Below are positions 38,399 to 56,358 of a stretch of DNA of 64,000 bases, one piece after another (position 1 is the first letter of the stretch; each line of letters begins with the position of its first letter). The stretch is from NCBI GenBank assembly GCA_036679645.1, contig JAZDCY010000035.1, positions 42,253-106,252 on the forward strand, given 5' to 3'. Origin of the DNA: Gemmatimonadota bacterium (GTDB lineage: Bacteria; Gemmatimonadota; Gemmatimonadetes; Gemmatimonadales; GWC2-71-9). Below the pieces are notes generated by a model, which had not been told where the DNA came from, ran no database searches, and worked only from the letters and a program-made list of their open reading frames with translations. A program made the translations under genes and the position numbers.

Positions 38399-38406
38399 AG
38401 ACACTC

Positions 38407-38435
38407 AGGCTAACCGTAGGTTCCAACCCCGTCAA
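38407..38435 (-). promoter_or_regulatory. Sigma70-like promoter (leaderless) for the small membrane gene and tRNA-Val
   Basis: TTGACG, 17 nt, TAGCCT, then 8 nt to ATG 38398. Confidence 0.6.
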
Positions 38436-39430
38436 GCATCGGTACTTGGGGCGTCTGGGGGGAGGACCCAGCCGTCGTCCAGTCGTGCCCGCCGGAGCTG
38501 ATCGTCGCGTCGGCGACGCCACCACAACAGGCCCACCAGAACCACGGTCACGGACCAGAACACGGCAAACGACGTGAATATCTGGAGCCACCCGTAGCGG
38601 CTGCGAAGCTCACGCTGCCACAGCCCTTCGAATTGCGCCAGCGAGACCAGGTGCGTGCGCCGGACCGCCAAATCGAAACTCCGCACATCCCGCAGGTTCT
38701 CGAGGAACGGGGCGAGCCCTCGCTCGCCGCCGATCCGCTCCAGGAATAGAACCGCCGCCGTAGAGAGCGCATAGGCAGCGTGTGCGTGCGCGGGCCCCGA
38801 GCGCAGCTCCCGGTTCAACCGGGCAAACGACGGAATATTCCCTTTGGCCAGTGTCCAATTGACACCGAGCGCGTCGAGCCGACCCCACTCGGCTGCCGCG
38901 CGCGCCGCGTACCCCTCGTCGAACCAGAGCGGAATCTGCGCCCTCGTGGCGCGATGTAGCGCCAGGTGCGCCAACTCGTGCCGCAGCGTGGTCAGGGGAT
39001 CGCCGGACACCCGAAGCACGATCGAGCCCGATCGGGGAAACGCCGCCGCGGCACTCCACGGCGGAAGACGGTGCGCGGTTACCGAGTCAAAACGCTCGCG
39101 CGATCGTGTCACCACCAGCCGGATCGGTAACGAGTCCACGCCGGGGAGACCGGGCCACCGCGCCGGTCGATCTGCAAGCTCGGCCAGAGCGGTGGCGAGT
39201 GCAGCATCACCCGCCCAGTAAACGGCGACCACCCGCCCGACGCGCACCGTCTCCGGCACCTGGGCCGGCAGCGCTACGGGTACGAGGGCCGCTAGGAGCG
39301 CGGCGGCTCTTCCCCCTGGGCCACGAGATCGAGCGTCTCTTTGCAGCGTTTCCCCCAGGGATTGAACTTGTTGGCCGCGAATCCCTTCTCCCAGGTCTCG
39401 TTGGCGCCCTCTCGATCGCCGGAGTACCAA
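38432..39430 (-). CDS. Peptidase MA-like zinc metalloprotease with a C-terminal membrane anchor (true start probably near 39300-39350)
   Basis: HELAH (HExxH) plus PLWFDEG, a signal-like LLAALVPVALPA-Q and a C-terminal TM followed by WWRRRR. Confidence 0.78.
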   Translation of the reverse strand: MVLRRSRGRQRDLGEGIRGQQVQSLGETLQRDARSRGPGGRAAALLAALVPVALPAQVPETVRVGRVVAVYWAGDAALATALAELADRPARWPGLPGVDSLPIRLVVTRSRERFDSVTAHRLPPWSAAAAFPRSGSIVLRVSGDPLTTLRHELAHLALHRATRAQIPLWFDEGYAARAAAEWGRLDALGVNWTLAKGNIPSFARLNRELRSGPAHAHAAYALSTAAVLFLERIGGERGLAPFLENLRDVRSFDLAVRRTHLVSLAQFEGLWQRELRSRYGWLQIFTSFAVFWSVTVVLVGLLWWRRRRDDQLRRARLDDGWVLPPDAPSTDA

Positions 39431-40152
39431 TGGGCCCGGCCTAGCTCGTAGTATGCCTCGATGAGATTCGGCCCCAGCGCAATTGTCTTCTGAAAAAAAG
39501 TCAGCGCGTCTTCGAACATCTCGCGCTCGAGGTAGACGAGCCCAAGATAGTAGTGCGCGTAGAGGGTCGCCTTCTTGTCGTTGTCCAGCCGAATCGCCTT
39601 GGATAGGTGCTCGATCGCCTCACCGAAGATGCGCTTCTTGAGACAGATGAACCCAACGTTGATGCGGGCCAGCGAGTTGGCCGGCTCCTTCATGAGCACT
39701 TTCTGGAAGGTGGCGAGCGCGTCGTCGAAGTCCTCGTGCTTCATCTGCGCCCACCCAAGCAACGACTCCGCCTGCGCATCTCCCGGCGAGTATTGCAACG
39801 CCTTGGTGAGCGCCTGAATGGCACCCTCGTAATCGCCCAGGGAAATCAGGTTCCACCCTTTCTCGATGAGCGTCGAAGCATCGATGTGACTGACGTGCAT
39901 CGCCGGAATCTGGCCAGTGAACTGCGGTACCTGGTCGCTCGAGTCGCCCTGCTGCAGCTGTTTGTACCGGTCAACTAGCACGCGGATGTCTTCCTTCAAA
40001 GCCGTCAGATCGGTGATACCCTGATCGACAGCCTTGAACAACGCGATGATCTCCCGCTTGACCCCCTCCCGCTGCTCACCAGACGACGCCTCGTCGAGGC
40101 GCTGCTGAATCGAGATGTAGCTCGCGCGAAGTGGGGTAACGATCTCACTCAT
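39292..40152 (-). CDS. Coiled-coil plus TPR protein
   Basis: N-terminal helical hairpin, then about five TPR repeats. Overlaps the cheW stop. Confidence 0.85.
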   Translation of the reverse strand: MSEIVTPLRASYISIQQRLDEASSGEQREGVKREIIALFKAVDQGITDLTALKEDIRVLVDRYKQLQQGDSSDQVPQFTGQIPAMHVSHIDASTLIEKGWNLISLGDYEGAIQALTKALQYSPGDAQAESLLGWAQMKHEDFDDALATFQKVLMKEPANSLARINVGFICLKKRIFGEAIEHLSKAIRLDNDKKATLYAHYYLGLVYLEREMFEDALTFFQKTIALGPNLIEAYYELGRAHWYSGDREGANETWEKGFAANKFNPWGKRCKETLDLVAQGEEPPRS

Positions 40153-40627
40153 GACCCGCCTCCACCGTCAGGGCCGCGAGAGCGACCTGTTCGTCGGACG
40201 ACAGGAGCCGTGACACCGCCAGAATCACAATCGTCCTCCCGGCGATCGTCACCATCCCATTGATGAACTGTGCCGCCAACCCTCGCACCAGATCGGGCGG
40301 CAACGTAATCTCCTCCGCCCGCACCTTGCGTACTTCGATGACCTGATCCACCACCACCCCAATCCGCGTGCTCTCCAGCTCCAGCACGATGACCCGCGTC
40401 TCATCACGCACCGTCGCCGGCGCCGTAAGCCGTTTCCGCAGGTCAACGAGTGGAATGGTGCTGTCGCCATACGAGAACACGCCCTCGAGAAACGCGGGCG
40501 CCTTCGGTAACGGCGTGGGTTCACGATAGCGGACGATCCGTTCCGCTTCGAAGACGCTCACCGCAAAACGCTGCGCGCCGACCCGGAACACGACCAACTG
40601 AACGTCGTCGCCCTGTTGTTCAGGCAT
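40145..40627 (-). CDS. cheW: Chemotaxis coupling protein CheW
   Basis: QLVVFRVG, TPLPKAPAFLEG, IPLVDLRKRL, GVVVDQV. Confidence 0.9.
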   Translation of the reverse strand: MPEQQGDDVQLVVFRVGAQRFAVSVFEAERIVRYREPTPLPKAPAFLEGVFSYGDSTIPLVDLRKRLTAPATVRDETRVIVLELESTRIGVVVDQVIEVRKVRAEEITLPPDLVRGLAAQFINGMVTIAGRTIVILAVSRLLSSDEQVALAALTVEAGHE

Positions 40628-41051
40628 CGGCCACCGCCTGTCGCTCGAGTTCGAGCTGATCAATCACCGCTGCGACATCCACCACGGGGATCATTGCCCC
40701 CTCATACCGCGTGACGCCGGCGGCCCATGGCATTTCCCACACCGCCGGAACGGGCTCGGGCGCGTCCGGCAGCAGGTCCGCCGCCTCGTCGACCTCGAGC
40801 GCCAACCGCCGCTCAGCTGCCGCAACGAGCACTGCCGTGTAAGACGTGGCACTCGGCGCCGGTCCGTGCGTGAGCACCGCCCCGAGATGCACGACGGGCA
40901 CCAGATCCCCACTGATGCGCATCACACCGCGAACGGCGGCGCACGCCACGGGCACTGCTAGGACCTGGCCGATCGGCACGATCTGCTCTACGTGCTCGAC
41001 GGCGAGCGCGTAATGCCGCTCTCCGACCCGGACGAGCAGACAGCCACTCAC
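40620..41051 (-). CDS. cheW: CheW-like protein
   Basis: [35 protein letters not shown]. Confidence 0.82.
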
Positions 41052-42121
41052 TCAGCACTCCGTAGCTCGAGCTCGGCGTGCACCTGCGGTCCGATTTCCC
41101 GCAGGGGAACAACGCGGCCCACACCGCCTCGCTGGACCGCCGCCTGTGGCATCCCGAAGATCACGGCGGTCTCCTCATCCTGCGCTAGGCCGATGCCTCC
41201 CGCGTCGTGAATCGCTCGCAGTCCCTCCGCTCCATCCCGTCCCATACCTGTCAGCACGACCCCGATCGCTCGCGGACCAAAGGCACGCGCAACGGAGCGA
41301 AACAACGGATCCGCCGCAGGACGCACACCCCACACGGCGGGCCCCTCATCGAGACGCAGGAGTGGTTCTCCAGCGACCCTATCGACGAGCAAATGATAAC
41401 CGCCCGGGGCGACGTACGCCGTGTCGGCCAGGAACGGAATGCCGTCGTCGGCCTCGACCACGCGAAACGCGCTACCCTGATCCAGGCGCTCGGCCAGACT
41501 CCGCGTGAACTTCGGCGGCATGTGCTGCACGATGACCGCGCCCGCGCCGAGCCCAGGTTGAAACGCCGGAACCACCTCGGCGAGCGCCCGTGGGCCACCC
41601 GTACTTGCCGCAATCGCGACCGCGAGCGTCGCCCGGCCCTGGATGGCATACTCGGGACGCCGGGCCGGTGGTGCTGGCGCCGCGCGCGCTAGCATGGGTA
41701 CGCGCGAAAGATTGGCCGCGACCGCCGCGTCCAGCGCCGCGATCAGCGGCGGACCGATCTGCTCGGCGGCAGCCCGTGTATGCACTTCAGGCTTCGCAAC
41801 GATTTCCACCGCGCCCAGTTCGAGCGCCCGGATCGCGGCCGCGGTGCCCGGCCCTGCATAGGCACTCACCACGACGACCGGCCGCGGTGACTCGCTCATG
41901 ATGTACCCGATCGCGCCGAGGCCATCGAGTTCAGGCATCTCGATATCCATCGTCACGACATCGGGAGTATGTAGATGCACCTTCGCGACCGCGTCCATAC
42001 CATCGCGCGCGGTCCCGACGACGCGGAAGCGCCCGGACGCATTGATGACGTCGCACAACACGCGCCGCATGAGCGCGCTGTCGTCCGCAACGAGCACAGT
42101 GCGAGGGCGCTCAGAGTTCAC
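41048..42121 (-). CDS. cheB: Chemotaxis methylesterase CheB (REC plus catalytic domain)
   Basis: ADDS...MDIEMP receiver; catalytic triad motifs [18 protein letters not shown]. Confidence 0.95.
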
Positions 42122-42602
42122 GCGGCGTATTCCCCACCGACCAAACGACGAGCGTCCCCGCCCCAACATCGAAGCGCAGTGACCGGCCGCGCTCGCCGCC
42201 CAACGCCTCCCCGATGACCGGTACATCCGCTTCATCGAGGGCACGGCGACAGGCGACGGCGTTTCGCTCACCAATATGCTCCACGCCGGGCGCCATCAGC
42301 GCTGCGAACATGCGCGCGCCACCGACCAATCGCGCTGTGAGACGCTCGTACACACCGCCTTCGCGCTCCATCTCGCCGATCAGATGCGGTACGGCGGTCT
42401 CGGCGAACCGCGCCGGATTAGACCGATCGCGGGCAAACTCGGTGGATGGCAGCACAACATGCACCACGCCGCCAACACGCGCGTCGGGATCGTGCAGCAC
42501 CACCGCAACGCAGCTCCCCAACCCGTGGACGGCAATCGTCCGATCCGCACCGACAACCGCTACCCGCCCGAGGCCGACCGGCACTTCACCCCGGTGCTTC
42601 AC
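42111..42602 (-). CDS. cheD: Chemoreceptor glutamine deamidase CheD
   Basis: [30 protein letters not shown]. Confidence 0.92.
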
Positions 42603-43414
42603 GACGCCCGCCGGTAAATTCGCTCGCGCGCGTTGTCCAGCACGAGCCGGTCGCGCGCTTCGCCGAACAGCGTTTCGACCTTCCCGAGCACCAGAATCCC
42701 GCCGGGCGCGAGCGCTTCGGTAAACGCCAGGAACAACCGTTCCTGAGTCGTACGGTCGAAGTAGATCACTACGTTGCGACACAGGATCAGATCGTACGGC
42801 GGATGGGGCGGCGGTTCGCGCAGCAGGTCGTGCCGCCGGAACCGGACGAGCGTACGGACCCCGGCGGCAATCCGCCGGGGTGTGGAGTCGCTGAAATGCC
42901 GCTCCAACAGTGACGGCGGGAGCTCGTCGAAAGCGCTCTCGGGATACGACCCTGTCTCGGCCCGTGCCAGACTCGCTCGGTCGAAGTCCGTCGCGTCAAC
43001 GAATGCCGGAATGGAGGTCGACCAGCCGACCTCGCGCGCCTGCTCCAGCAGCACCATGGAGAGTGTGTATGGCTCCTCACCGGAGGCGCAACCCGCCGAC
43101 CAGCAGCGGACGGCGCCCTGCCGGATGCGCCAGAGATGTGGGACGTGATGCGCGCGGAGCGCGTCCCACGTATCGTGGTTTCGATAGAACTTGCTGACGT
43201 TGATCGTGAGCGTGTCGAGCAAGCGCTCGTATTCCGTGTCATCCTGCGCGAGCAAGCGCGCGTAGTCGTCATACGTATGAACGTTCCGAGCGCGCATCCG
43301 GACGGCAAGACGGCGCCGCAGGCAGCTCTCCTTGTACGCGTCGCATCCGAATCCGCGAGCCCGCGCGACCTGCTCCAGCAGCGCCGCAAGGGCGGGATCC
43401 CCTGCCTCGGTCAC
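42599..43414 (-). CDS. cheR: Chemotaxis methyltransferase CheR
   Basis: TINVSKFYRN, WSAGCASGEEPY, CRNVVIYF, LGKVE. Confidence 0.94.
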   Translation of the reverse strand: MTEAGDPALAALLEQVARARGFGCDAYKESCLRRRLAVRMRARNVHTYDDYARLLAQDDTEYERLLDTLTINVSKFYRNHDTWDALRAHHVPHLWRIRQGAVRCWSAGCASGEEPYTLSMVLLEQAREVGWSTSIPAFVDATDFDRASLARAETGSYPESAFDELPPSLLERHFSDSTPRRIAAGVRTLVRFRRHDLLREPPPHPPYDLILCRNVVIYFDRTTQERLFLAFTEALAPGGILVLGKVETLFGEARDRLVLDNARERIYRRAS

Positions 43415-45030
43415 GCCAGGGCGCTCAGCGTTTCGAGGTTGGTCCGCACGAGTTCGTGGCCCGGGTTCAGGTCGAGCGCCTGTCTCCAGCACGCGCTGGC
43501 CTGCTCGCGGTCGCCGCGCTTGTACGCGATGTTGCCCAACTTGAAGTAGAGATCGTCACCGAGCTGCGGGTCGAGCTTGATGGCGCGCTGGTACGCGGTC
43601 GCCGCATCATCGTATCGGGCCGCGCGATACAGGATATCCCCCAAGTTCTTCGATAGCTGCGGCACGGACGGCTCATCGGCCAGGGCGCCACGCAGGAGAT
43701 CCTCTGCTTCATCAACGGAACCGAGCAACTCGATGAGTGCGGCAAGATTGTTGGCGAGGACGGCGCTCTTGGGATGACGCTCCAGGCCCTCGCGCAGCAC
43801 CGATTCCGCCTCGTCGAACGCTTCCTGCCCGGCCGCTGCGAGGCCACGCGCCCAGTACCACAGGGGAGGGAGGGGCGCATCGCCCGCAACCTCTGCCGCC
43901 CGGTCGAGCCGACCCTCCGCCACCTGGTACTCCCCGCGCTGGAGCGCCGAGATGCCCCACCCCGTCATGATGCGGGCGTCGTAACGGGCGCGACCCGCCG
44001 CATCGCCGTAGGCCGAATCCGCGTGGTCGAGCTGGCCCAGCTGCTCGTACGCCAGGGCGAGATTGTGCAGCACCGCGGGCCGGGCACCCAGGTGCTCGGC
44101 CGCATTGCGGAAAAAACCCGTGGCATCCCGCCACCGCGCCTGCCTCAACGCTACGAGCCCGAGAAAGAAGTGCGCCTCACCATCTGCCGGTCGGAGCTCT
44201 ACCACACGGCGAAACTCGCGCGCCGCCTCGTCGAGCATTCCCGTCCTGTAGAAGGCGATACCCAAGTTGCGGTGCTCCTGCACACGACCCTCATTGACCT
44301 CCGCCACCGCGGGCGCCTGACTGCGCCCCACCCGATGGGCGAACCCGGCGGAGATCAGGCCGTACAACGCCTTCCCAACGTCGAACTCGACGAGCCCTGA
44401 GTCCTCGATGACGCAGGCGACGTCCCGTTCGCCGTCGAACAACGGCAGGATCTGCCGCTGCTGGTCGGTCAGCTCCACGTCCGAGGCCTCGAGACGCCCG
44501 CCGTCCACGCTGAAGATCAGATCGAAGGACGGGACTTTCTTCTCGATGAGGCTCCACTCATCGACGCGGCGCGCTCCTTCGAGCAGAAGCGACTCCGGCT
44601 TGATGGAGACGACGAACTCCTCGCGTTCCGGCCGTACCTCGCTCTCGAAGTTGAACGTTCCCTGCGTCCAGGTGAAGAGATAGTAGACCGCCTCCTGGAT
44701 CTGGACGCGCATGTTGCCCTCGAGATCGTCACGACTTAGGAGCCCGAGATCCACGAGGATCTGGCCGAGTCGCTTGTCGCGCTCTTCCGACTGCTTCTCG
44801 ATGGCCTCGCTCAGCTGATCCTGCGTGATCTTCCCTGCCTTGACGAGCATGTCGCCCAACCGGTCGCGCCGGTTGACGATCGAGGCGTAGGAGATCTGTC
44901 CCCGGTCGAAGTAGATGTAGCCGAAGTTGGAGCGGTCGGCGATTGACAGGCACCCGGTCTTCTGCCCCAGCGCGAGCAACTGCAACACATCGGGGAGTGA
45001 CGCCTCTTTGAGGCTGCCTTTGATCGCCAT
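43411..45030 (-). CDS. DUF4388/PATAN - MshEN - winged-helix-like - TPR protein
   Basis: GSLKEASLPDVLQLL...KTGCL, tandem RLGxxLV motifs, LLLEGARRVDEW, C-terminal TPRs. Confidence 0.85.
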   Translation of the reverse strand: MAIKGSLKEASLPDVLQLLALGQKTGCLSIADRSNFGYIYFDRGQISYASIVNRRDRLGDMLVKAGKITQDQLSEAIEKQSEERDKRLGQILVDLGLLSRDDLEGNMRVQIQEAVYYLFTWTQGTFNFESEVRPEREEFVVSIKPESLLLEGARRVDEWSLIEKKVPSFDLIFSVDGGRLEASDVELTDQQRQILPLFDGERDVACVIEDSGLVEFDVGKALYGLISAGFAHRVGRSQAPAVAEVNEGRVQEHRNLGIAFYRTGMLDEAAREFRRVVELRPADGEAHFFLGLVALRQARWRDATGFFRNAAEHLGARPAVLHNLALAYEQLGQLDHADSAYGDAAGRARYDARIMTGWGISALQRGEYQVAEGRLDRAAEVAGDAPLPPLWYWARGLAAAGQEAFDEAESVLREGLERHPKSAVLANNLAALIELLGSVDEAEDLLRGALADEPSVPQLSKNLGDILYRAARYDDAATAYQRAIKLDPQLGDDLYFKLGNIAYKRGDREQASACWRQALDLNPGHELVRTNLETLSALA

Positions 45031-45031
45031 A

Positions 45032-46999
45032 CTAGACGAGTTCCTCGATGATCCGGTCGTTCGTGTCGGGCCAGCGCCAGATCACCTTTTCCCGACTGCG
45101 CACACCGCCGGCTGGCGAGACGACGATCCCGCTAGTTCGCATGCGGAACGACGAGCGCCGCGGCCGAGCACCGCCATCGAGCAGATCGCGCGCGAAGGGG
45201 ACTGTCAGCACTGCATCGCGGGTCTCCGCGGCATCTACCACGCGCTGCACCGTGCCGATCACCGTTCGCAGACTCTCGGCATTGCGGTCGGCAAGAAACG
45301 CGGCAAGATCCGGATCCGACGTGCCGGTGCGCGTCTCGAGCTCGCGGACGACCAGGGAATACCGCAGGTCTCGATCTGGTGGGTCGATCTCGGCCACGAG
45401 CCCGCCCTCCATACGTGAGATGAGGCGTTCGTGGACGCCGTCCAACTCGCGCGGCGCCACGTTGACCGTGAAGACGACCTGTCGTTCCTGATCGACGAGC
45501 GCATTGAACAGGTGGAACAACTCCTCTTGGGACCGCTCCTTCCCCGCGAGGAGATGGACATCATCGAGCAGGAGGGCCGTCGCGCGGCGATACCGGGACC
45601 GCCACGCATCGACACGGTCCATCTCGATCGCCTGGACCAACTCGTCTATGAAATCCTGCGCGGAGAGACAGGCGACCAGTGCGTCGGGCGCTGCCGATAG
45701 GGCGTGGCCCACCGCATGGAGCAGGTGCGTCTTGCCAACGCCAGTGGGGCCGGCCAGCACCAGTGGGTTGTACGTCGTCGCCGGGTGCTCCGCCACGGCA
45801 CGCGCGGAGGTCAGCGCCAGCTGGTTGGACTCGGCGTCCACGAAATCGTCGAAGGCCCATGCTGCAGAAGGCCCCGGCGGTGGTGCAAGACCGTCCCGGG
45901 CCCGGCTCACGAGCTCCTCCGCGGCCGGCACTTGATCGGGATCGTGAAACACGGCGTCACCGGCGCGCGCGGCATCGAGCGTCGTCATCTCACGCTCCAA
46001 CGCCTGCAGCCGCTCAACATCCGCCCCATATTCCCGCAACACTGCGTCCGCGCCCACGGGCGTATCCTGCTCGAGCAACGTGACAATCCGCGCGGTCCGG
46101 TAGCCCTGACCTTCCCAGAACACGACGGCTTCGTGCAGTCGCTGCCGCCACGCGTCCATCTGCTTGGCGAGCGCACTTCCAACCGACGAGAGGAATTGAT
46201 CGAACTCGTTACCGGCGACCACGCCCTCGCTTGCAGCCGCCGCCAGCTCGGCTGCTGCGTCATCTACCTCCCCAACCGACTCGCCGATCCCCAGCAGCGT
46301 ACGCACACCGTCCGCCGTAATGGCGCCTTCGTTGACGGCCTGAAACGCGATGAGGCGGTTGAGCAATCCAATCAGCTCCCGTACGTTCCGCGCGTCGACC
46401 TCGGCGATCGCCTCGAGCACCGCCCGCTCGAAATCCACGCCACGCTCGTCAGCCTTCCTGCGCAAGATGGCGAGGCGCGTCTCGAACTCCGGCGTACCGA
46501 TATCCACGACCAACCCGCCCGCAAACCGCGAGATGAGCCGCTCGTCCAGATTCTCGATCTCGTTTGGGGGACGGTCGCTCGAGAGGACGATCTGTTTGCC
46601 ACCCTCGAGAAACGCCGTGATGAAACGCAACAGCTCCGACTGGGTCTCCAGCCGGCTTGCGAGGAAGTGGACATCATCGATGAGCACCACGTCGACACCC
46701 GTGAAACGATTGCGGAACGCCTCGCTCTGTCCGGCCGCGACGGCTGCATGAAACGACTCGACGAATTCCTCGAGCGTGAGGTACTCAACCGACAGCGCCG
46801 GACTCACTTCCTTGGCGAGACGCCCGATAGCCATCATCAAATGCGTCTTCCCCAGACCCGACGCCGAGTAGATGAACAGGGGGTTGTACGCAGTACCCGG
46901 ACTCTCGGCAACCGTCCGCGCCGCAGCGACGGCGAGCCGGTTGCTGGGGCCGACCACGAACGCGTCGAAGGAATACCGCGGGTTGAGATCGACGGTCAC
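45032..46999 (-). CDS. Protein with two DnaA/Hda-type AAA+ modules, lacking DnaA domains I and IV
   Basis: Two copies of F(D/E)xFV...N...YNPL...GxGKTHL...DDVH...RLISR. Confidence 0.88.
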
Positions 47000-47595: not shown

Positions 47596-47600
47596 GAGAT

Positions 47601-48415: not shown

Positions 48416-49221
48416 CGCTCCTCCGCCTGCAACCAGGTGCGCGCCGCAGCGGCCGCACGCTGTGCGAGGAGAGCAACCCGCCCGGGCGGAACCGCCCGGT
48501 CTCGCTTGATCAACAGGAAGGTCCCCTGGCGTGGCTGGGATACGTGTAGATGGCCGTCCGGGGCCTCCACCGCGATGGCACGCCACACCCCCAATTCGAG
48601 CAGGCGCGCCGCCCGTTCCGCTTCCTGCGCCGCCCCGGCAAGATACGCGGCCACCTCGGCCGCCACATCCTCACCGGATGCGTTTCGCACCCCACCCCCC
48701 AACACGCGACCTTGCCCATCGACGAGCAGAATGCCTTCCTCGGCGCCGTCGAATCCGGCGAACACGTCGGCCCGGATCTCCCCTGATGCCCGAGCTGCCG
48801 TGATGTCTGCTTCTGACGGCTCGGCGGCCGCACGCACTGTGCGGAGCGCCTGCACGACTGATTCGTCGGTAGGATCGGTCGCGAGGGCCGTCTCTAGATG
48901 GTCCAGGGCGCTGTCCAACTCATCGAGACGGTAGAGCAGGAACCCCATCCCCTTGTGAGCGCCGACGTGCCGCTCTTCCAACTGCAGCGCTCGCTCCCAC
49001 TCCTCATGAGCCGCGTCGAAGTTCCCCGCATCCACGAACACCCGAGCGAGCAAGTCGTGAGCATCCGCGTGATCGGAATGCCGCTCGCACCCGGCCATGG
49101 CCACCTTCACCGCCGCGTCCAAGTTACCCAACACCCTCAGCGCCTCTCCCAACTGGAGGAAGACGAGGCTGTCGGGATCGCGCGCCATCTCGGCCGTCAT
49201 CGCCTTGATGTCAGCGACCAT
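48412..49221 (-). CDS. TPR - Roadblock fusion protein
   Basis: N-terminal DPDSLVFLQLGEALR and TPRs; C-terminal ILLVDGQGRVLGG...AARLLELG...PGRV roadblock-like domain. Confidence 0.75.
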   Translation of the reverse strand: MVADIKAMTAEMARDPDSLVFLQLGEALRVLGNLDAAVKVAMAGCERHSDHADAHDLLARVFVDAGNFDAAHEEWERALQLEERHVGAHKGMGFLLYRLDELDSALDHLETALATDPTDESVVQALRTVRAAAEPSEADITAARASGEIRADVFAGFDGAEEGILLVDGQGRVLGGGVRNASGEDVAAEVAAYLAGAAQEAERAARLLELGVWRAIAVEAPDGHLHVSQPRQGTFLLIKRDRAVPPGRVALLAQRAAAAARTWLQAEER

Positions 49222-50359
49222 TGCCCCCTCGTATGACTCCATCGAGCGTGCGCGCTGCTTCGATCGCCGCCTCGACATCCTCGCGCTCCGTCGCGAGCGT
49301 GTCATCATGGCGTGCTATCGACAACCACCGCTCCCACCACTCGACCGCATCGTGGAACTTCCCTTGGAGCGCGAGTGCATTGCCCAACGCCTGGTGCGCC
49401 AGCGCAAGCATCGGATCGAGCCCAAGCGCCTGGCGCGCCGCCCGTTCCGCATCGCCGGCGCAGTCTCGAGCGAGCGAAACCTGCGCCGCCGCGAGATGCG
49501 CTTCGGCATCGGTCGGGTACGCGGCGACGAGCGCCTCGACCTCGACACGCGCGCTCTCGACGTCGCCGTCCGCCAGGAATCCGTCTACGCTGGCAAGGGT
49601 CCCGGACAGATCGTCTGCATCGCTGGACGACTCCCGCACCGGATCGCGCACTTGCACGATTCCAGCGCTCTGCAAGCCAAAGACCGTGCGCGCCACCTCG
49701 AATTCGGACCGGCCCAACGTTCCCGCAATCAGGCGCAGATCCACCGTCCCGTCGATCATCGCGAGCACTTCCCACTCGGTGGCCAGGAGATCGAGTTCTC
49801 CCTCCTCGGTGCCTTCCGCCAACACCAACGACGGGACCACGCCCAAGTGCGGGATCTGCCGCTCGATGCGCGACCATTCGTCGATCCGCCGAGCGCCCTC
49901 CATCATCAGGGCCTCAGTCGGGATCCGCACGAGCGCCTCTGCCGGCACCTCGCCAATCGGGCCTTCGTTGAACGAAAAGTAGCCCTCGCGCCAATTCATG
50001 ACCTCGAAGATCACCTCCTCGACTTGGAGATGGACCATTCGTTCGAGTTCTCGCTGGCTGATGGCATCGATCGCCACCAGGATCTCACCCAGCCGGCGTT
50101 CGTCGCCCCGTCGCTGCGTCTCCTGCGCGAGATTGAGCTCGGCCTCCGTAATTTTGCCGGCTCGCAACAACAACTCGCCCAGCCGATGGGGGTTGCTGCG
50201 GACTTCCGCAGCGATCACGCCGCCTTTCTCGAAATGGATTGTGCCGTGATTGCGTCGCAGCTGCGACGTCACGCGCAAAACACCGGTCTTGCGTGAGAGA
50301 TCGAGCAACTGGAAGACATCATGGATGCCGAGTTCGCGAAGGGGGCCTTCGATCGCCAC
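49211..50359 (-). CDS. DUF4388/PATAN - MshEN - winged-helix-like - TPR protein (paralogue)
   Basis: GPLRELGIHDVFQLL...KTGVL, tandem RLGE motifs, LMMEGARRIDEW, TPR tail. GTG start at 50359. Confidence 0.85.
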   Translation of the reverse strand: MAIEGPLRELGIHDVFQLLDLSRKTGVLRVTSQLRRNHGTIHFEKGGVIAAEVRSNPHRLGELLLRAGKITEAELNLAQETQRRGDERRLGEILVAIDAISQRELERMVHLQVEEVIFEVMNWREGYFSFNEGPIGEVPAEALVRIPTEALMMEGARRIDEWSRIERQIPHLGVVPSLVLAEGTEEGELDLLATEWEVLAMIDGTVDLRLIAGTLGRSEFEVARTVFGLQSAGIVQVRDPVRESSSDADDLSGTLASVDGFLADGDVESARVEVEALVAAYPTDAEAHLAAAQVSLARDCAGDAERAARQALGLDPMLALAHQALGNALALQGKFHDAVEWWERWLSIARHDDTLATEREDVEAAIEAARTLDGVIRGGNGR

Positions 50360-50360
50360 G

Positions 50361-53045
50361 TCAGGCCGCCTCGGTGCGGAAGATGTGCTGGAGATCGAGC
50401 GCCGTGCGTGCGTGCTTGCGCGCCTTCTGCGCATACGGACCAGCAGGATCTAGCTGCACGACCTGCTCCCACGCGTGCACCGCGTCGGGGTACCGGCGCA
50501 ACCGCGCCAGCGCGACCCCGCGGAAGAAACGCGCGGCGACGTGATCGGGATCGAACGCCGTCACCCGGTCGAACGCCTCGAGGGCTCGATCCAGGCGGCC
50601 GTCGTCCACGAGAGCCTGCGCGAGGGCCATCACCGCTTCGAGATCGCCGGGGTCGTCGTGAAGGAGATCGACCAGCAGGTTGATGGCCTCTCGCGCCCGC
50701 GCCGTCTGCCGGAAGACGCGGGACAGCGGGACCGCGGCTTCGGAGTAGGTCGGCAGCACGTCAAGCGCCGCCCGATACGTCGTCTCGGCGGCCGCCCAGT
50801 CCTCTCTCTCTTCATGCACGTGCCCCAGAGCAACGTGCGCCTGCACGAATCGCGCGTCGAGTTCTAGCGCGGACTCGTAGGCGGCGCGGGCGGCGTCCAA
50901 GTCGCCGGTTCCCGCCGCGATGTCTCCTTCGAGCTTGCGAATGTCTGCGCGTTGCGGTGCACGAGCACGCGCCAGTTTCACCGCATCCAGCGCGCCAGCC
51001 GGATCATGGTCGGCGCGGCGCGCTTCGGCAACTGCAAGGAGCACATCGAGATGTTCCGGCAATTCCGCTGCCAGGCGTTCGGCGTCATCCCGCGCCCCCC
51101 GCGCTTGTCCCAACGACACCCGGGCGCGCACCTCGCCGAGCCGGGCGTCGATCCGATCGGGGGCTCGCTCCCGCGCGGCGCGGAACCTCTCGAGCGCCTC
51201 ACCGTGCAGGCCGCGGCGCCGAAAGATCTCGCCGGCGAGCACCAGCGCTTCCACCTCGTCGGCGCCGCGCGATACTGCGCGGCCGGCTTCGGCGGCCGCC
51301 AACTCGAAGAGCCCCTTCGAGAGATAGTCCCGCGCGAGGGACAGTGGGTCGGTAGGCTCGGGATCCGCCCGCTTAGACGGACGGTCGAGCTCCTGGAAGA
51401 TCTGGTCGAGAACCCCCTGATCGAAATGGAGGCTCTGGGGCGCGATCTCCGTACTCACGTCCGCGGAGATCTCGGGCACGATCGAGATGGTCGGGTCCTC
51501 GTACTGGAGATCGATGGCCAGACGGAACTTCTGCGGCACGTAATAGGGGTCAAGCGTCTGGGCGCGGGTCACCGCACGCAACGCACCGTCATAGTCACCC
51601 ATCGCTGAGAGCGCAAAGCTCAAGTTGTAGTGCGCTTCTGCTGACTCGGGGTCGTTCTCGACTGCCCGGGCAAAAGCGTTGCGCGCGTCCTCCGTCCGCT
51701 GCAACTCGTTCAGCACGAGACCGATCCCATTCCAGGCGGGCGCGGACGCCGCGTTGAGATCGAGCACCTGCCGGTACGCCTGTAGGGCCAGCTGATAGCG
51801 GCCCAGGCGGGCGAGCAGCAGCCCGAGGTTCAAGCGAGGGACCTCCAGGGCTTCGCCGGAACGCATCGCATCGTGGAACTCCTCGATCGCATCTTCGTGA
51901 CTGGACTGATGGGCCAAGCTGACCGCGAGATTGTTGCGCGCGATGGCGTAATCTGATGCGATCTCGACCGCGCGGCTGTAGGACGCGACCGCGTCCTCGG
52001 ATTGCCCTAGCTGGTGCAGCACGACCCCACGCTCGTTCCAGAGCTTTGGGGAGTCCGGCACCTCACGCGTCAGCGTATCGTAGAGCTCGAGCGATGCCGC
52101 GTAGTCCCGTCGCAGCAGGTGGACTTCCGCCATCGCCTGCAGCACCCGGAGGCGCTCTTCGCCCTCATCGAGACCGATGCGATACTCGCGCAGCGCCTCG
52201 TTGTAGTACCCCTTCTGCCGAAATGCCAGCCCGAGATTGAAGTGGGCAAACGATCTCCCCTCTGCCGACTCGAGGGTCGCATCGTCGGGGATCCGAATGG
52301 GCTGCGACTTCCGGTCTCCGATATAGCGTTCGAGGGAGAGGTTGGTTTGCGCGCGCGCAAATGTCGGGTTGAGTCGAATGGCTCTCTTCGTTGCCTCGCG
52401 TGCCTCTTCATGCCGCCGAAGGTCGCCGTAGACGAACGCGATCAGGTAATGCGCGTCCGCGTTCTCCGGGTTCAGCTGCACCGCGCGGGAAAGCGCGGTC
52501 AGGGCGTCGGCGTTGAGACCGCGATTGTAGAGCACCTCGCCCAGGTAGAAATGGACAACGCTGCTGTCGTGATCGAGATCTGCCGCGCGCACAAACCACT
52601 CCGTCGCCTCTTCCAGGCGACCGCGGGTTTTTTCCGCCAGTCCCAGCTGAATGAGAGCCGCCAGATCGCCGGGGTCGCGGGACACGATCTCCTCGAACTC
52701 CTGCACCGCGGCATCGGACTGCCCCAACGACGCATACGCCCGTCCCAACTCCCAGCGGGCCTCGCGGTCTGCGGGCGTGACCCGCAAGCGCTCGTGGAGG
52801 GTCGTGACCCGCTCGTCGTAGTGCCCGGTCTGCTTGTAGGCGATTTCCAGATTCCGCTGAGCGACGAGCATCTTCGGATCCAACTCGAGCGCCCGCACGA
52901 AACACTGGATCGCCTCGTCGGCAAGGCCCTTTTGATAGAAGAGCACACCCAGATTGTTGTGCGCCCCCGAATCCGACTGGTCGATGCGGCGGGCGAAGGA
53001 ACGCAGGACCTGGCGGTCGCGCTCCGAGAGGACCAGAGGGGCCAT
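50361..53045 (-). CDS. Large cytoplasmic TPR-repeat protein (894 aa)
   Basis: Many canonical TPRs (AHNNLGVLF, AHFNLGLAF, AWNGIGLVL); no signal peptide. Confidence 0.88.
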   Translation of the reverse strand: MAPLVLSERDRQVLRSFARRIDQSDSGAHNNLGVLFYQKGLADEAIQCFVRALELDPKMLVAQRNLEIAYKQTGHYDERVTTLHERLRVTPADREARWELGRAYASLGQSDAAVQEFEEIVSRDPGDLAALIQLGLAEKTRGRLEEATEWFVRAADLDHDSSVVHFYLGEVLYNRGLNADALTALSRAVQLNPENADAHYLIAFVYGDLRRHEEAREATKRAIRLNPTFARAQTNLSLERYIGDRKSQPIRIPDDATLESAEGRSFAHFNLGLAFRQKGYYNEALREYRIGLDEGEERLRVLQAMAEVHLLRRDYAASLELYDTLTREVPDSPKLWNERGVVLHQLGQSEDAVASYSRAVEIASDYAIARNNLAVSLAHQSSHEDAIEEFHDAMRSGEALEVPRLNLGLLLARLGRYQLALQAYRQVLDLNAASAPAWNGIGLVLNELQRTEDARNAFARAVENDPESAEAHYNLSFALSAMGDYDGALRAVTRAQTLDPYYVPQKFRLAIDLQYEDPTISIVPEISADVSTEIAPQSLHFDQGVLDQIFQELDRPSKRADPEPTDPLSLARDYLSKGLFELAAAEAGRAVSRGADEVEALVLAGEIFRRRGLHGEALERFRAARERAPDRIDARLGEVRARVSLGQARGARDDAERLAAELPEHLDVLLAVAEARRADHDPAGALDAVKLARARAPQRADIRKLEGDIAAGTGDLDAARAAYESALELDARFVQAHVALGHVHEEREDWAAAETTYRAALDVLPTYSEAAVPLSRVFRQTARAREAINLLVDLLHDDPGDLEAVMALAQALVDDGRLDRALEAFDRVTAFDPDHVAARFFRGVALARLRRYPDAVHAWEQVVQLDPAGPYAQKARKHARTALDLQHIFRTEAA

Positions 53046-53048
53046 GCG

Positions 53049-53669
53049 TCAGGTAATGCGGACGGCGTCGAAGATGGCCTTAAGGGACGCGAGGTCAGGG
53101 AGCAAGAGAAAGTGACCGTTCAACGCCCGGCCGGCTTCGACGAAATGAAAGTCGGTTTCGACGCAGAACACGAAATCACGATCTTGACCGAAGTTGAGAT
53201 ACGCCGTCGTGACGACGGCGCCCGCGAGGTCTACCACCAGACTGGGCACCGAGGGCAAGAGCATCATACCCATGAAATCGGACAGCGCGTTCATGTATGC
53301 GCCACCGAGTATGTTCCCCGCCTCCTTGAGGCTCGACTGCTCCAGCTCGTCAAACCTGTCCGTCGAGCCTGGCGTCCGCTTCAACAGAAGATCACAGAGA
53401 AGCTTGGCGTTCTCTTCCGGCACGAGAAAGAGCGTCCGACCAGTGAGATCGCCGAGCATGTGCATGAGCACGGCCGCGACCACTTCATCCGGATCCCCGA
53501 TCGTCTCGGGCACGTCCTCCAGGCGCGTGATCGTGATCTCCGGCACGTTGATCATGATCCGCCGATCGGTCATCTGCGAAAGCGCCGTCGCCGCATGCCC
53601 CGCGCCGATGTTGGCCACTTCCTTCAGGGCATCGAGCTGTAACGCTTTCAGATCGCGAATGTCTTCCAT
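53049..53669 (-). CDS. cheC: CheY-P phosphatase CheC
   Basis: Two ExxN active motifs: DALKEVANIG and SSLKEAGNIL. Confidence 0.93.
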   Translation of the reverse strand: MEDIRDLKALQLDALKEVANIGAGHAATALSQMTDRRIMINVPEITITRLEDVPETIGDPDEVVAAVLMHMLGDLTGRTLFLVPEENAKLLCDLLLKRTPGSTDRFDELEQSSLKEAGNILGGAYMNALSDFMGMMLLPSVPSLVVDLAGAVVTTAYLNFGQDRDFVFCVETDFHFVEAGRALNGHFLLLPDLASLKAIFDAVRIT

Positions 53670-53679
53670 GAAGCCGTCC

Positions 53680-55548
53680 TCAGACGAGTCCGCCCGCGTC
53701 CAGGATGAGTACGGGCGACCCGTCCCCGAGAATCGTAGCGCCGCCGAAGATCGGGAGCGTTCCTTGCGGCGGGTCGAACGGTTTTACGACGATCTCCTGT
53801 TGGCCAAGCAGGCTGTCGACAACGACCCCTGCCCGCCGGTCCCCTATCCTTACGACGACCACCGGTCGTTTTGGCGGAGCCACCCCTCCGACCCCGATGA
53901 CCTCCCTCAGGTCGACCAGAGGCACTACCTCCTCGCGGAGCCGTAGAGCCTCCCGCCCCTCGAAATCTGCCACCCGATCGGCCGTGAGCTCGACGGTTTC
54001 CGTCACATGGGTCAGCGGCAGCGCGTATTGCTCATCGCCGATCCGGGCGAGCAGCGCCCGAATAATGGCGAGCGTCACCGGAATCCGGAGCGAGAAGGTG
54101 GTTCCCGCCCCCGGTTGGCTCTTGATCTCGACCGACCCACCCAACGCGCGCATGCGGGTGGCAACGACATCCACCCCGACCCCACGCCCCGAGACATCCG
54201 ACACCTCACGAGCCAGACTGAACCCCGAACGGGCAAGAACGCGGAACAACTGGTCGTCACTCAAATCCTCGGTCGACTCGTCCACCGCCCCCAATCGCCT
54301 GGCCTCAGCGAGGATCTTGTCCCGATCGATGCCGCGCCCGTCGTCCTGTACCACGATGACGATGGTTGACCGCTCACGCAGCGCCGCGAGCACGATCTGG
54401 CCGGTGCGGGGCTTTCCAGCGGCCTCACGCTCTTCCGGTTTCTCGATCCCGTGGTCCACGGCATTCCGGAGCATGTGCACCAGCGGATCACTCAGCTCGT
54501 CGAGGATGGCACGATCTACCTCGATCTCCTTTCCCTCGACGCGGAACTCGACGTCCTTGCCCAACTGCCGGCCAAGATCGCGCACGAGACGCGGGAACCG
54601 ATCGAAGACCTGCCACACGGGGGTCATGCGCGCCTGCAAGATCTCCGATTGGAGATCGACAGTGAGGTGCGACACCTTCTCCACCGCGTCAGTGAGGAGA
54701 GGATCGCCCCGTTGGGTGCTGAGGTGATCGAGCCGGCCACGCGCCGTCACGAGCTCGCCGGCAAGGTTCATCAGCCGATCGAGGCGACGCAGATCCACCC
54801 GAATGTGACGGGTCCGCCCGGGAGCAGCGCGCCCCACGGGTGCAGCGACATCCTCGTCGGCATCGACCGCCACACGATCTATGTCACCCGCGGCTCGAAT
54901 CTCGCGTTCGATCGTTTCCCGATCGGTCGTGGTCTCCAGGCGAAAGGCAAAACGGCCATCGAATTCTTCCCGCTCAATCGCCGCCAGTGCCGGTTCGACC
55001 GCGCGCACCGTACCGAGCGCCTCCGCCCGCCGAAGCGCAACCAGCGCGCGCGCTCCCTTGAGCGGACTATCCGCCCGGATCACGACCTGCACCTTGTGCC
55101 CGGCACCGGAGGGCGCGGACACGAACGAGATACGCCGGCGCGGCCGGTCGCGCTGCTCTCCTGGCTCGAGCGCCCTGCTCGCTTCGTCTAGTGCCTCGAG
55201 CAGCGGCGCTACATCCTCGCCCGCAGCCGTCCCCGTGGCGGCCGCCTCCACCAACTCCTCGAGCGCGTCAGCCGTGCGAAAAAGCAGCTCGATCATCTCA
55301 GGCGTAACCGTTTGCTCCTCACGGCGAAACACATCGAGCAGGTTTTCCGCTCGGTGCGCGAGGTCCGCGACCGGTGCATATCCCATGGTCGCAGCCATGC
55401 CCTTGATCGTATGGACCGAACGGAAGATCCCGTGGACGGGCTCGATGTGCTCGGGACGGCGTTCCCAATCGAGCAGTAGCTGATTGAGAGCGCCGAGATG
55501 TTCACGCGCCTCGGCGCGGAACAGCTCGGCGTAGCGGGACAGGTCCAT
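53680..55548 (-). CDS. cheA: Chemotaxis histidine kinase CheA
   Basis: Hpt FRSVHTIKG, P2 domain, HMLRNAVDHG, DDGRG, SGRGVG, C-terminal CheW-like P5. Confidence 0.97.
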   Translation of the reverse strand: MDLSRYAELFRAEAREHLGALNQLLLDWERRPEHIEPVHGIFRSVHTIKGMAATMGYAPVADLAHRAENLLDVFRREEQTVTPEMIELLFRTADALEELVEAAATGTAAGEDVAPLLEALDEASRALEPGEQRDRPRRRISFVSAPSGAGHKVQVVIRADSPLKGARALVALRRAEALGTVRAVEPALAAIEREEFDGRFAFRLETTTDRETIEREIRAAGDIDRVAVDADEDVAAPVGRAAPGRTRHIRVDLRRLDRLMNLAGELVTARGRLDHLSTQRGDPLLTDAVEKVSHLTVDLQSEILQARMTPVWQVFDRFPRLVRDLGRQLGKDVEFRVEGKEIEVDRAILDELSDPLVHMLRNAVDHGIEKPEEREAAGKPRTGQIVLAALRERSTIVIVVQDDGRGIDRDKILAEARRLGAVDESTEDLSDDQLFRVLARSGFSLAREVSDVSGRGVGVDVVATRMRALGGSVEIKSQPGAGTTFSLRIPVTLAIIRALLARIGDEQYALPLTHVTETVELTADRVADFEGREALRLREEVVPLVDLREVIGVGGVAPPKRPVVVVRIGDRRAGVVVDSLLGQQEIVVKPFDPPQGTLPIFGGATILGDGSPVLILDAGGLV

Positions 55549-55551
55549 TCG

Positions 55552-55914
55552 CTAGCCCAGGACCCGTTGAACAGCCTCGAGGACGCGCGATGGTTGAAAC
55601 GGTTTGACCACGAAATCCTTGGCGCCGGCCTGGATCGCCTCCACGACGAGGGCCTGCTGCCCCATCGCGCTACACATCAGAACCCGGGCCCTCGGGTCGG
55701 ACGTGACGATCTCCCGAACGGCGTCGATACCCCCCATGTCGGGCATGACGATATCCATCGTCACCAGATCGGGCTTGAGTTGCTTGTACTTCTCCACCGC
55801 CTGTACACCGGTCTCGGCTTCTCCGACGATCTCGAACCCCGCCTGCGACAGGATGTCGCTGATCATCGTTCGCATGAAGATCGCGTCGTCGCATACCAGC
55901 ACCGTATGGCTCAC
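55552..55914 (-). CDS. cheY: Single-domain response regulator CheY
   Basis: DDAIFMR, TMDIVMP, SAMGQQ, VKPF; Bacillus/Thermotoga-type sequence. Confidence 0.93.
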   Translation of the reverse strand: MSHTVLVCDDAIFMRTMISDILSQAGFEIVGEAETGVQAVEKYKQLKPDLVTMDIVMPDMGGIDAVREIVTSDPRARVLMCSAMGQQALVVEAIQAGAKDFVVKPFQPSRVLEAVQRVLG

Positions 55915-56357
55915 GAACCCTCCCTCAGAGACAGAATCGGGCCGAACAGCACCTCGAGATTGAGCAGCACAAACGGGCGCCCGGCACGCTCACCGACGCC
56001 CCGCACGAGTCGGCGATCGATCCCGGGCAACGCACTTCCCTCCGCCAGCGCGCCCGGCTCGGGCGATATCAGATCGAGGACCTCGTCCACGGTCATGGCG
56101 ACCTGGCGATCACCCAACTCGAGTAGGAGCGTCGACCCACCGTTGCCGTGCGCCTCAACCCCGAGAAGACGGGGGCCATCGACCAGTGTTACCAACTCGC
56201 CACGGACGTTGATGAGACCGGCGACTGCATCCGGTGCACCCGGAATCCGGGTTGCGGGCCGCGGCGGCAAGATCTCCCGAACAGCCAAGACGTCGGCCGC
56301 GCAGACGAGATCCGCCACGCGGAAGATCAGCAAACGGTGCCCCGCCGATGCGTCCAT
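55911..56357 (-). CDS. cheW: Chemotaxis coupling protein CheW
   Basis: TRIPGAPDAVAGLINVRGELVTLVD, MTVDEV. Confidence 0.88.
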   Translation of the reverse strand: MDASAGHRLLIFRVADLVCAADVLAVREILPPRPATRIPGAPDAVAGLINVRGELVTLVDGPRLLGVEAHGNGGSTLLLELGDRQVAMTVDEVLDLISPEPGALAEGSALPGIDRRLVRGVGERAGRPFVLLNLEVLFGPILSLREGS

Positions 56358-56358
56358 C

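Follow-up and report, generated by a model that had tools for sequence, protein, structure and literature searches.

A class-wide Gemmatimonadota operon of chemosensory, MglA/MglB-type and tandem DnaA-like ATPase genes, and its possible link to type IVa pili

Myxococcus, with its scattered genes, has given only a partial answer to how chemosensory phosphorylation reaches the polarity GTPase MglA and how MglA reaches the pilus motor. The question is raised in compact form by a gene cluster on the minus strand (56357 to 39292) of a 64,000-nucleotide stretch of DNA from a Gemmatimonadota bacterium (GenBank assembly GCA_036679645.1, contig JAZDCY010000035.1, positions 42,253 to 106,252), the whole of which is hereafter called the window. 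The cluster combines a Che pathway, an MglA/MglB-type switch, two PATAN/DUF4388 proteins with motifs for cyclic di-GMP (c-di-GMP), and a tandem DnaA-like ATPase, here named DnaA2. We found it to be a class-wide, uncharacterised operon of known families in an arrangement not found described, with one odd protein and a two-protein core. From the sequences compared below, we lean towards the view that the Che pathway, the MglA/MglB-type switch and c-di-GMP converge on a hub made of the PATAN protein DUF_TPR2 and the C-terminal tail of DnaA2, which would control type IVa pili.

Reading of the open reading frames (ORFs) and Pfam searches gave 18 genes, all with the expected family labels, in the order cheW1-cheY-cheA-cheC-TPR894-DUF_TPR1-TPR/Roadblock-Roadblock-mglB-mglA-dnaA2-DUF_TPR2-cheR-cheD-cheB-cheW2-cheW3-TPR286. 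A preliminary description, made from the letters alone, had counted 17 contiguous genes; every gene that it listed was present and in the order given, and the count is 18. Its report of overlaps or gaps of no more than 10 nucleotides (nt) agreed with the 17 internal junctions, which measured -11 to +10 nt with refined start codons. Pfam supported each gene label, except that TPR894 and TPR286 gave matches to tetratricopeptide repeats (TPRs) only, and the Roadblock match of mglB, at 19.6 bits, was under the family cut-off. The features of the cluster are as follows (aa, amino acids).

55911..56357, minus strand: cheW1, 148 aa (PF01584; start refined)
55552..55914, minus strand: cheY, 120 aa, F1-like single receiver (PF00072; closest solved structure 1tmy_A, E 1.6e-50)
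53680..55548, minus strand: cheA, 622 aa, Hpt-P2-dimer-HATPase-CheW, no receiver (Pfam)
53049..53669, minus strand: cheC phosphatase, 206 aa, two E-x-x-N motifs (PF04509)
50361..53045, minus strand: TPR894, an all-TPR protein (TPR families only)
49211..50359, minus strand: DUF_TPR1, 382 aa, PATAN/DUF4388 with an MshEN-type insert (about 50024-50185) and a short TPR (PF14332; NF053729)
48412..49221, minus strand: TPR-Roadblock protein, 269 aa (TPR and PF03259)
48065..48415, minus strand: stand-alone Roadblock, 116 aa (PF03259)
47601..48068, minus strand: MglB-like protein, 155 aa, with C-terminal helix (profile match to MglB 6izw_B)
46996..47595, minus strand: MglA paralog, 199 aa (match to MglA 6hjh_A, E 1.7e-74)
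45032..46999, minus strand: DnaA2, 655 aa, two DnaA-type AAA+ modules, helical linker, conserved tail (PF00308 twice)
46151..46210, minus strand: DnaA2 linker helix, about residues 264-283 (by eye; weak hhalign support)
45035..45097, minus strand: DnaA2 C-terminal tail motif, residues 635-655 (hhalign)
43411..45030, minus strand: DUF_TPR2, 539 aa, PATAN/DUF4388 with an MshEN-type insert (about 44701-44862) and TPRs, the proposed hub (PF14332; NF053729)
42599..43414, minus strand: cheR, 271 aa (PF01739, PF03705)
42111..42602, minus strand: cheD, 163 aa (PF03975)
41048..42121, minus strand: cheB, 357 aa, receiver and methylesterase (domain profiles)
40620..41051, minus strand: cheW2, 143 aa (PF01584)
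40145..40627, minus strand: cheW3, 160 aa (PF01584)
39292..40152, minus strand: TPR286, a conserved TPR protein (TPR match)

We compared this arrangement with that in 20 loci of relatives, in 80 public loci and in some 30 others taken from a sample of the phylum. The gene order was unchanged in every cluster-carrying locus examined in the class Gemmatimonadetes, and since the same order is conserved across relatives, it is not due to chance. Among the 84 loci spanning both ends, 54 had all 18 genes and 80 had TPR286 at full length, the nearest Atlas protein clusters of the latter being from Gemmatimonadota; of the 80 closest public loci, 77 were labelled Gemmatimonadota or a rank inside it. 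DUF_TPR2 was found in 82/82 loci chosen by flanking anchors; these loci had initially been selected through other cluster genes, before the cluster-less genomes joined the survey. This value replaces a figure of 84/84, which was circular because the filter had demanded DUF_TPR2. The neighbourhood survey proposed in the preliminary description thus found the che and mgl/dnaA-like blocks co-conserved across the class and catalytic residues retained in the Che proteins, in MglA and in both AAA+ modules (residue counts given below are alignment columns among orthologs, close relatives and two apparent duplicate pairs, L004/L028 and L058/L111, included).

The same survey showed how the cluster comes apart. 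In a FastTree phylogeny of rluA and DUF_TPR2, loss or decay of the che genes beside a retained core was seen at four or more separate positions (L004/L028; L094 with L058/L111; L064; L013/L065), and che was also lost in genome G062 (L125/L126). Conversely, L116 and L124 kept cheW-Y-A-C, DUF_TPR2, cheR-B and TPR286 without TPR894, DUF_TPR1, the Roadblocks and mglA; L117 was without mglA, and L114 without the three Roadblock genes. The circuit is therefore modular, as the Che and Mgl blocks have each been lost separately in relatives, and the single hard-wired circuit proposed at the outset has to be given up. The constant parts are DUF_TPR2 and the DnaA2 tail, which persist beside the arm that is left; Che and Mgl would be optional inputs.

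A distant relative of DUF_TPR2 clustered with a WOR-3-labelled protein, and a metagenome contig of 30% GC encodes a 94%-identical copy. On this one contig, which ends just upstream, the order is pilT/pilU, mglA, dnaA2, DUF_TPR2, cheR, cheD, cheB, TPR286, with the PilT/PilU gene 0.2 kb upstream of mglA. Locus L087, a 4-kb contig labelled Rokuibacteriota, was not used as evidence of range. These data bear on the possibility that two modules are merely co-located and co-regulated, an Mgl/PATAN/DnaA2 cassette sitting inside a che operon, the two being of use for life on surfaces but exchanging no direct signal. The loss of che in L013, L065, L094 and G062, the loss of the Mgl core in L116 and L124 and a degenerate MglA in L115, L129 and L130 would all be expected under mere co-location, as would the MglA-PATAN neighbourhoods reported from many phyla in portions of PMC4316618. 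It accounts poorly, however, for an interleaved order kept across five families and partly on the 30%-GC contig of another lineage, and for the persistence of DUF_TPR2 and the DnaA2 tail beside either arm. We regard it as distinctly unlikely.

An even sample of 70 genomes was searched together with the source genome (G000); 56 of these genomes belong to the class (55 sampled and G000). The cluster was present in 51 of the 56 (50 by the main search, and G085). The five cluster-less genomes are 98-100% complete; rluA directly precedes the peptidase gene in G077, G079 and G084, and G061 retains a scar of the cluster (L139:5604-6523) consisting of rluA, an intact cheY, fragments and a peptidase fragment. 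Because the cluster is gone from genomes of this completeness, it is not essential for division or replication. The output in asymmetric division suggested earlier has thus lost ground; an essential role there is unlikely, since in at least four near-complete genomes the cluster is missing or scarred between rluA and the peptidase gene.

DnaA2 itself was modelled as two AAA+ modules joined by helices, followed by a disordered stretch and a short tail (predicted local distance difference test score 83.7, predicted template modelling score 0.46). It resembles DnaA domain III and Hda in its DnaA-type AAA+ fold (Foldseek superposition on Bacillus subtilis DnaA domain III, 8bv3_A, root-mean-square deviation 1.5 over 231 columns), Walker A and B motifs, arginine finger and sensor 2. 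It differs from them in its tandem modules, in changed residues for contact with single-stranded DNA, in a tail that persists without the ATPase, and in its lack of domains I and IV; neither the DnaA N-terminal domain (I) nor the DNA-binding domain IV was matched in DnaA2 by Pfam or in the structure model. The Walker A Lys was present in 98/98 sequences in both modules and Walker B was kept in most of the 98; the finger Arg was found in 82/98 and 95/98 (modules 1 and 2) and the sensor-2 Arg in 98/98 and 95/98. Hda is a single AAA+ module with an N-terminal clamp-binding motif. An identification of DnaA2 as Hda was rejected, as it has two modules and no clamp-binding motif was seen at its N-terminus; the Hda model TIGR03420 gave 195.7 against a cut-off of 194.8, reached only with both modules. 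A search with the linker gave 55 matches, most without a taxon; all the named ones were Gemmatimonadales.

The likeness to DnaA invites a reading in terms of cell-cycle control, in which DnaA2 would join DnaA in its assemblies or regulate it, and the site of budding or asymmetric division would be set by MglA. Module 1 shows 44% identity to the genome's own DnaA, equivalents of R202, E228 and I193 are largely kept in DnaA2, and module 1 also keeps the arginine finger and K222; moreover, the locus lies between divIVA-ileS and a mur/fts cluster. Such a role is nonetheless hard to reconcile with the missing domain IV and with the residues that did change: N187 (B. subtilis numbering) is E or D in both modules and I190 is H in module 1, and both are needed in vivo in B. 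subtilis DnaA according to passages of PMC10721633. A canonical dnaA is also present elsewhere in the source genome (contig C4), both ATPase modules are gone in five loci (see below), and the whole cluster is gone in the five genomes mentioned above. Cell-cycle control seems to us very improbable.

In those five loci, a mini-gene of 60-90 aa stands in place of DnaA2, both AAA+ modules having gone. The mini-ORFs, 60-86 aa, are dnaA2 remnants with the tail motif.

L020:9127-9342: mini-ORF
L021:10527-10745: mini-ORF
L116:10747-10926: mini-ORF; no Pfam match
L117:2097-2354: mini-ORF
L124:5903-6082: mini-ORF

The mini-protein matched the DnaA2 tail with an hhalign probability of 91% and, weakly, the linker helix with one of 17%, a likeness seen by eye. 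In the same five loci DUF_TPR2 has undergone a clean internal loss of its c-di-GMP insert. A form with a single AAA+ module, in L112, keeps the tail, and in protein P0114 and three near-identical proteins (99.7-99.9% identical) DnaA2, tail and DUF_TPR2 are fused into one chain of 1026 aa. Since the tail persists without the ATPase modules, is kept in the single-module form and occurs in a natural fusion, these data suggest that the DnaA2 tail may bind DUF_TPR2. They also make it doubtful that the AAA+ ATPase is the output of the circuit, as first proposed, because one clade retains only the mini-protein with the tail motif.

The other half of the putative hub carries a c-di-GMP motif. Against NF053729, an NCBIfam model of an MshE-related c-di-GMP motif with a cut-off of 38, the two DUF4388 proteins scored 38.0 and 55.6 bits, the latter being DUF_TPR2; by this score, both have the tandem 24-residue motif of MshEN-type receptors. 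The first Arg of the motif is present in DUF_TPR2 in 104/109 sequences, the other five lacking the insert, as compared with only 13/119 in DUF_TPR1, where Pro is found in 93/119. Judged by these motifs, both proteins are likely c-di-GMP sensors; the c-di-GMP-type receptors proposed earlier were therefore recovered insofar as both reach the motif cut-off, while the motif is well conserved only in DUF_TPR2. In both, PATAN is fused to TPRs and not to a receiver, so that the PatA-type arrangement is absent. Proteins P0098, P0105, P0121, P0120 and P0126, of the same PATAN type, have three or four tandem DUF4388 domains, or a fusion to a protein kinase or carboxypeptidase regulatory-like domain.

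MglA of the cluster appeared equipped as a GTPase switch: a P-loop is present, R53 is kept in 113/116 and Q82 in 114/116 orthologs, residues that have a role in Group 1 MglA, and the G4 motif reads NKQD in 109/116. The adjoining mglB gave a profile matching MglB 6izw_B over 16-154, including the C-terminal helix (E 1.4e-17). The profile of the stand-alone Roadblock matched MglB at E 2e-5 and MglC (7ct3) only at E 0.29, and an identification as MglC was thus unsupported. Likewise, TPR894 could not be identified as SgmX, its C-terminal 412 aa matching generic TPR structures only; by likeness to SgmX, it is a candidate MglA effector. In three loci of the genus labelled g32 (L115, L129, L130), MglA is without R53 and the usual switch motifs, cheR/D/B are gone, and both TPR894 and DUF_TPR1 have become shorter or divergent; the Roadblocks, DnaA2 and DUF_TPR2 are intact despite the degenerate MglA.

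The source genome (92.7% complete) has a second mglBA pair on contig C22, after dnaX-ybaB-recR-like genes. In a best-score comparison, made without a tree, the C22 copy gave 274.6 bits against M. xanthus MglA and the cluster copy 252.8 bits; with a closer match elsewhere in the genome, the cluster MglA appears to be a second paralog and not the M. xanthus MglA ortholog. The canonical MglA on C22 (L104:9216-9884) has an insertion of about 30 aa ahead of the last strand and helix, and an 89-aa gene without a Pfam family separates the recR-like gene there from mglB. Outside both mgl loci, the genome has one more stand-alone Roadblock gene (G000:C32:40730-41158).

We next consider which receptors and which output the cluster would serve. 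The preliminary description had reported no methyl-accepting chemotaxis protein (MCP), flagellar or pilin genes in the window, in agreement with a Pfam scan of 29 further long ORFs, in which none was found (short ORFs were unscanned). In the whole source genome, the cluster holds the sole set of CheA, CheR, CheC, CheD and CheB methylesterase found, and three MCPs were found, all on contigs other than that of the cluster. One of them (L106:7096-9914, on C4) lies directly 3' of a gene for a periplasmic binding protein (PF13458) that probably delivers its ligand, and another (L107:7295-9505, on C58) has a GAF domain and a long hydrophobic N-terminal region. Neither FlhA nor flagellin was found by searching the source genome at its 92.7% completeness. 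It has a pilB-pilT-pilC locus with pilS-pilR, in which PilB has an MshEN domain, and 11 GGDEF matches. A separate PilB/GspE-like ATPase (G000:C53:67327-69681) includes a stretch resembling a receiver, which might be a target of phosphorylation close to a pilus or secretion motor.

Across the sample, a full type IVa PilB, scoring over the TIGR02538 cut-off, was found in 50/51 cluster-bearing genomes, the exception, G062, being cut by a contig end, and in 0/5 cluster-less genomes. The N-terminal c-di-GMP motif of PilB was kept in 6/6 others inspected from cluster-bearing genomes and in that of G000. MCPs were found in 48/51 cluster-bearing genomes. The three without any, G001, G058 and G062, are precisely those in which the cluster CheA has been truncated or lost; because of this coincidence, the scattered receptors appear to be tied to the cluster CheA. 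In G061, the canonical mglA lies in three pieces (L140:5763-6442) and neither a PilM nor a PilT ortholog was found, a pattern that looks as if the whole surface-motility system had collapsed recently. Neither PilM nor PilT was found in the cluster-less G077. Of the outputs named in the preliminary description, surface motility is the best supported; the cluster co-occurs with PilB rather than with flagella.

In the Che arm, cheY D54 is present in 101/102 orthologs, cheA H46 in 99/103, the CheC E-x-x-N motifs in 102-106/106, the catalytic Cys and His of CheD in 87/87, and D59, S173, H200 and D296 of CheB in 86/86. The presence of CheC and CheD and receptors of 44H length are features of the F1 chemosensory class. 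Both CheC and CheD are present in the cluster, their best scores falling on Thermotogales models below cut-off, and the five-domain CheA, with P2 and without a receiver, is a further F1-class feature. One of the three MCPs was tested and was collinear over 300 residues with 2ch7, which we take to be a 44H-class receptor, as compared with many gaps against the E. coli-type chain 8c5v; CheA P3-P5 scored 313 bits with Thermotoga-type chains vs 279 bits with 8c5v. The flagellar output of the F1 class has no counterpart in the source genome as far as FlhA and flagellin show, neither having been found. Passages of PMC10782961 and PMC3945109 give a C-terminal receiver and/or multiple Hpt domains as features of Tfp/Frz-type CheA, and these are absent from the cluster CheA. 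By its domains, the Che arm thus appears to resemble F1 and Dif and not Frz.

One might therefore ask whether a polarity cassette was inserted into an ordinary F1 operon for flagellar chemotaxis, which would be a relic in members without flagella. CheY, CheC and CheD are closest to Thermotoga-type entries, and FlhA was found in 10 of the 51 cluster-bearing genomes, three of which (G048, G023, G052) have the cluster CheA as the only CheA found. The other 41/51 gave no FlhA match, yet the catalytic residues are near-invariant and the receptors are kept, and 7 of the 10 flagellated genomes have a second CheA, located in 5 of those within 60 kb of flhA. We attach hardly any probability to a flagellar relic.

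A Dif-like role deserves more attention. Here the pathway would lie downstream of pili, and its output, on exopolysaccharide, adhesion or biofilm, would pass through a different response regulator; CheY would serve as phosphate sink and CheC as reset. The order cheW-cheY-cheA-cheC is presumably that of difC-D-E-G, and Dif of M. xanthus, which we take to be of F1 type, shares with the system examined here CheW, a single-domain CheY, a P2-bearing CheA, CheC, a receptor of 44H length and a non-flagellar host with pili. Passages of PMC4671073 describe MCP, CheW, CheY, CheA and CheC homologs in Dif, with DifD as a phosphate sink and pili upstream, and those of PMC3945109 a DifE with P2 and no receiver and a DifA of class 44H, both of which are matched by the cluster CheA and the one MCP tested. 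The co-loss with pili would fit equally well. On the other hand, the operon contains CheD, CheR, CheB and three CheW, its MCPs are unlinked, and an Mgl/PATAN/AAA+ block is inserted, whereas the passages cited give Dif no MglA, PATAN or AAA+ partner, and M. xanthus is without CheD (PMC3945109). Furthermore, CheY scored no more than 60 bits on the EpsW model, whose cut-off is 200, and no polysaccharide gene was seen in the cluster. We consider a Dif-like role unlikely.

We prefer the hypothesis of a DUF_TPR2-DnaA2 tail hub acting on pili, which could work as follows. The three scattered receptors would signal through CheW and CheA to phosphorylate CheY, with adaptation by CheR, CheB and CheD and reset by CheC. 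The MglA paralog would cycle between GTP and GDP under MglB and the two extra Roadblocks, and mark a pole through TPR894, while c-di-GMP would bind the DUF_TPR2 insert. DnaA2 would dock on DUF_TPR2 by its tail, its AAA+ modules forming an ATP-dependent scaffold and not an origin-binding initiator. The PATAN domain of DUF_TPR2 would then engage PilB and PilC, as cyanobacterial PATAN domains do, and set where and when type IVa pili are built. This last step is proposed because of three precedents, each as given in parts of the source: Synechocystis PATAN domains bind PilB1 and PilC in yeast two-hybrid assays (10.1101/2021.06.11.447907), MglA-GTP with the TPR protein SgmX stimulates pili in M. 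xanthus (PMC7519303), and two PATAN proteins co-occur with SgmX in M. xanthus (PMC11580455). The idea that SopA carries DUF4388/MshEN was dropped, as a passage of PMC11580455 states that SopA matches no known domain. A bolder version, which we put forward as a rather doubtful extension, is that a duplicated DnaA-type AAA+ protein without DNA binding was repurposed as an ATP-driven scaffold, tail-docked on a PATAN/c-di-GMP/TPR adaptor that merges CheY-P, MglA-GTP and c-di-GMP into a pilus command, class-wide and beyond.

Several observations weigh against the pilus-hub hypothesis. Every binding step is one that we infer. The replacement of DnaA2 by a mini-gene is probably one event, as four of the five mini-gene loci were in the tree of rluA and DUF_TPR2 and formed one clade; the DnaA2-DUF_TPR2 fusion is a single event in one species; and adjacent, translationally coupled genes fuse or persist easily. 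Retention of cheY was discarded as a sign of a core partner because cheY is intact in the G061 scar too. Tight packing is no special trait of the cluster, its flanks being packed as tightly, with rluA ending 1 nt upstream and the peptidase MA gene abutting or overlapping the downstream end. The C22 mglBA pair could take the polarity role, and the three flagellated genomes named above yielded no CheA besides that of the cluster. With regard to pili, the cluster-less G074 has a PilB (L147:5659-7851) without the N-terminal c-di-GMP motif; the cluster-less G079 and G084 keep pilM, pilT and pilC, pilB being absent from the sequence retrieved; 3/5 cluster-less genomes keep PilM; and, among the genomes sampled from other classes, six combine a full PilB with the absence of any cluster match at E 1e-30. 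Finally, related genomes do not count as independent cases, and in the five cluster-less ones many functions of motility may simply have disappeared jointly.

Compared with known systems, the operon resembles the M. xanthus MglA/MglB, SgmX and Frz system in R53 and Q82 of MglA, the C-terminal helix of MglB, a large TPR protein as neighbour, a chemosensory system and a genome that has type IVa pili. It differs in that its MglA is a second paralog inside a che operon, whereas mglA of M. xanthus lies away from its partners (passages of PMC4316618); in that its CheA has P2 and no receiver, as opposed to FrzE, which has a receiver (passages of PMC3945109); and in the addition of two extra Roadblocks, two PATAN-MshEN-TPR proteins and DnaA2 to the polarity module. 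With the cyanobacterial PatA-type systems (PATAN-REC, Tax/Pix), it shares PATAN/DUF4388 with an alpha-clip insert in a chemosensory locus and a proposed PilB/PilC output; unlike in those, PATAN is fused to TPRs, CheY is separate and CheA is of five domains as compared with the multi-Hpt Tfp type. Since its CheA is not of Frz/Tfp type, its PATAN is not fused to a receiver and its MglA is not the best M. xanthus match, the operon may work like Frz on Mgl or PatA on PilB and yet appears to belong to neither.

Group 1 MglA near PATAN genes was noted by Wuichet and Sogaard-Andersen 2014 (PMC4316618), whose Table S2 lists GAU_1409 of Gemmatimonas aurantiaca T-27 as PATAN>MglA>-PATAN>. This row has the core order of the cluster minus the Roadblock genes; it names no che genes, DnaA-like gene or function, and the main-text passages of that paper are silent on the locus. 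No description of the operon or of the tandem DnaA-like ATPase was found in the literature searched, most subscription papers being outside its scope. The statement that no characterised operon has this composition thus still holds for that literature, the GAU_1409 row alone listing the PATAN-MglA-PATAN core. The operon offers a compact parts list, in which natural deletions point to a two-protein core. If true, the hypothesis would give a little-studied phylum its first mechanism of surface behaviour, and would show the DnaA motor put to use outside replication. Its reach is limited by the fact that each part is from a known family, that MglA-PATAN neighbourhoods have already been tabulated in the part of PMC4316618 cited, and that the interactions are predicted.

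In the wider window, divIVA, ileS and rluA lie upstream of the cluster and a mur/fts cluster downstream. Two flanking genes outside the system border it directly.

56359..57417, minus strand: rluA, upstream flank (Pfam); it remains in place in cluster-less genomes
38432..39290, minus strand: peptidase MA gene, downstream flank, start uncertain (PF13485)

A contig of run X1, which may be the source sample, was identical over 38169-57900 (0 differences); in this comparison, small-sided joints were counted as other organisms or repeats. A promoter scan was uninformative, giving 0 sites where 2.0 were expected and 5 terminator-like sites where 9.3 were expected. A divIVA gene lies within about 6 kb of the cluster both in the window (62272-63039) and, by sequence likeness only, on the 30%-GC contig (L156:14448-15161). 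Conserved downstream of the cluster is a 609-aa TPR protein with a signal-like N-terminus (window 36260-38089), between tRNA-Val and tRNA-Asp (36129-36203 and 38124-38198). A MiaB-like radical SAM ORF at 1316-2884 of the window has a C-terminal ComFB match (PF10719).

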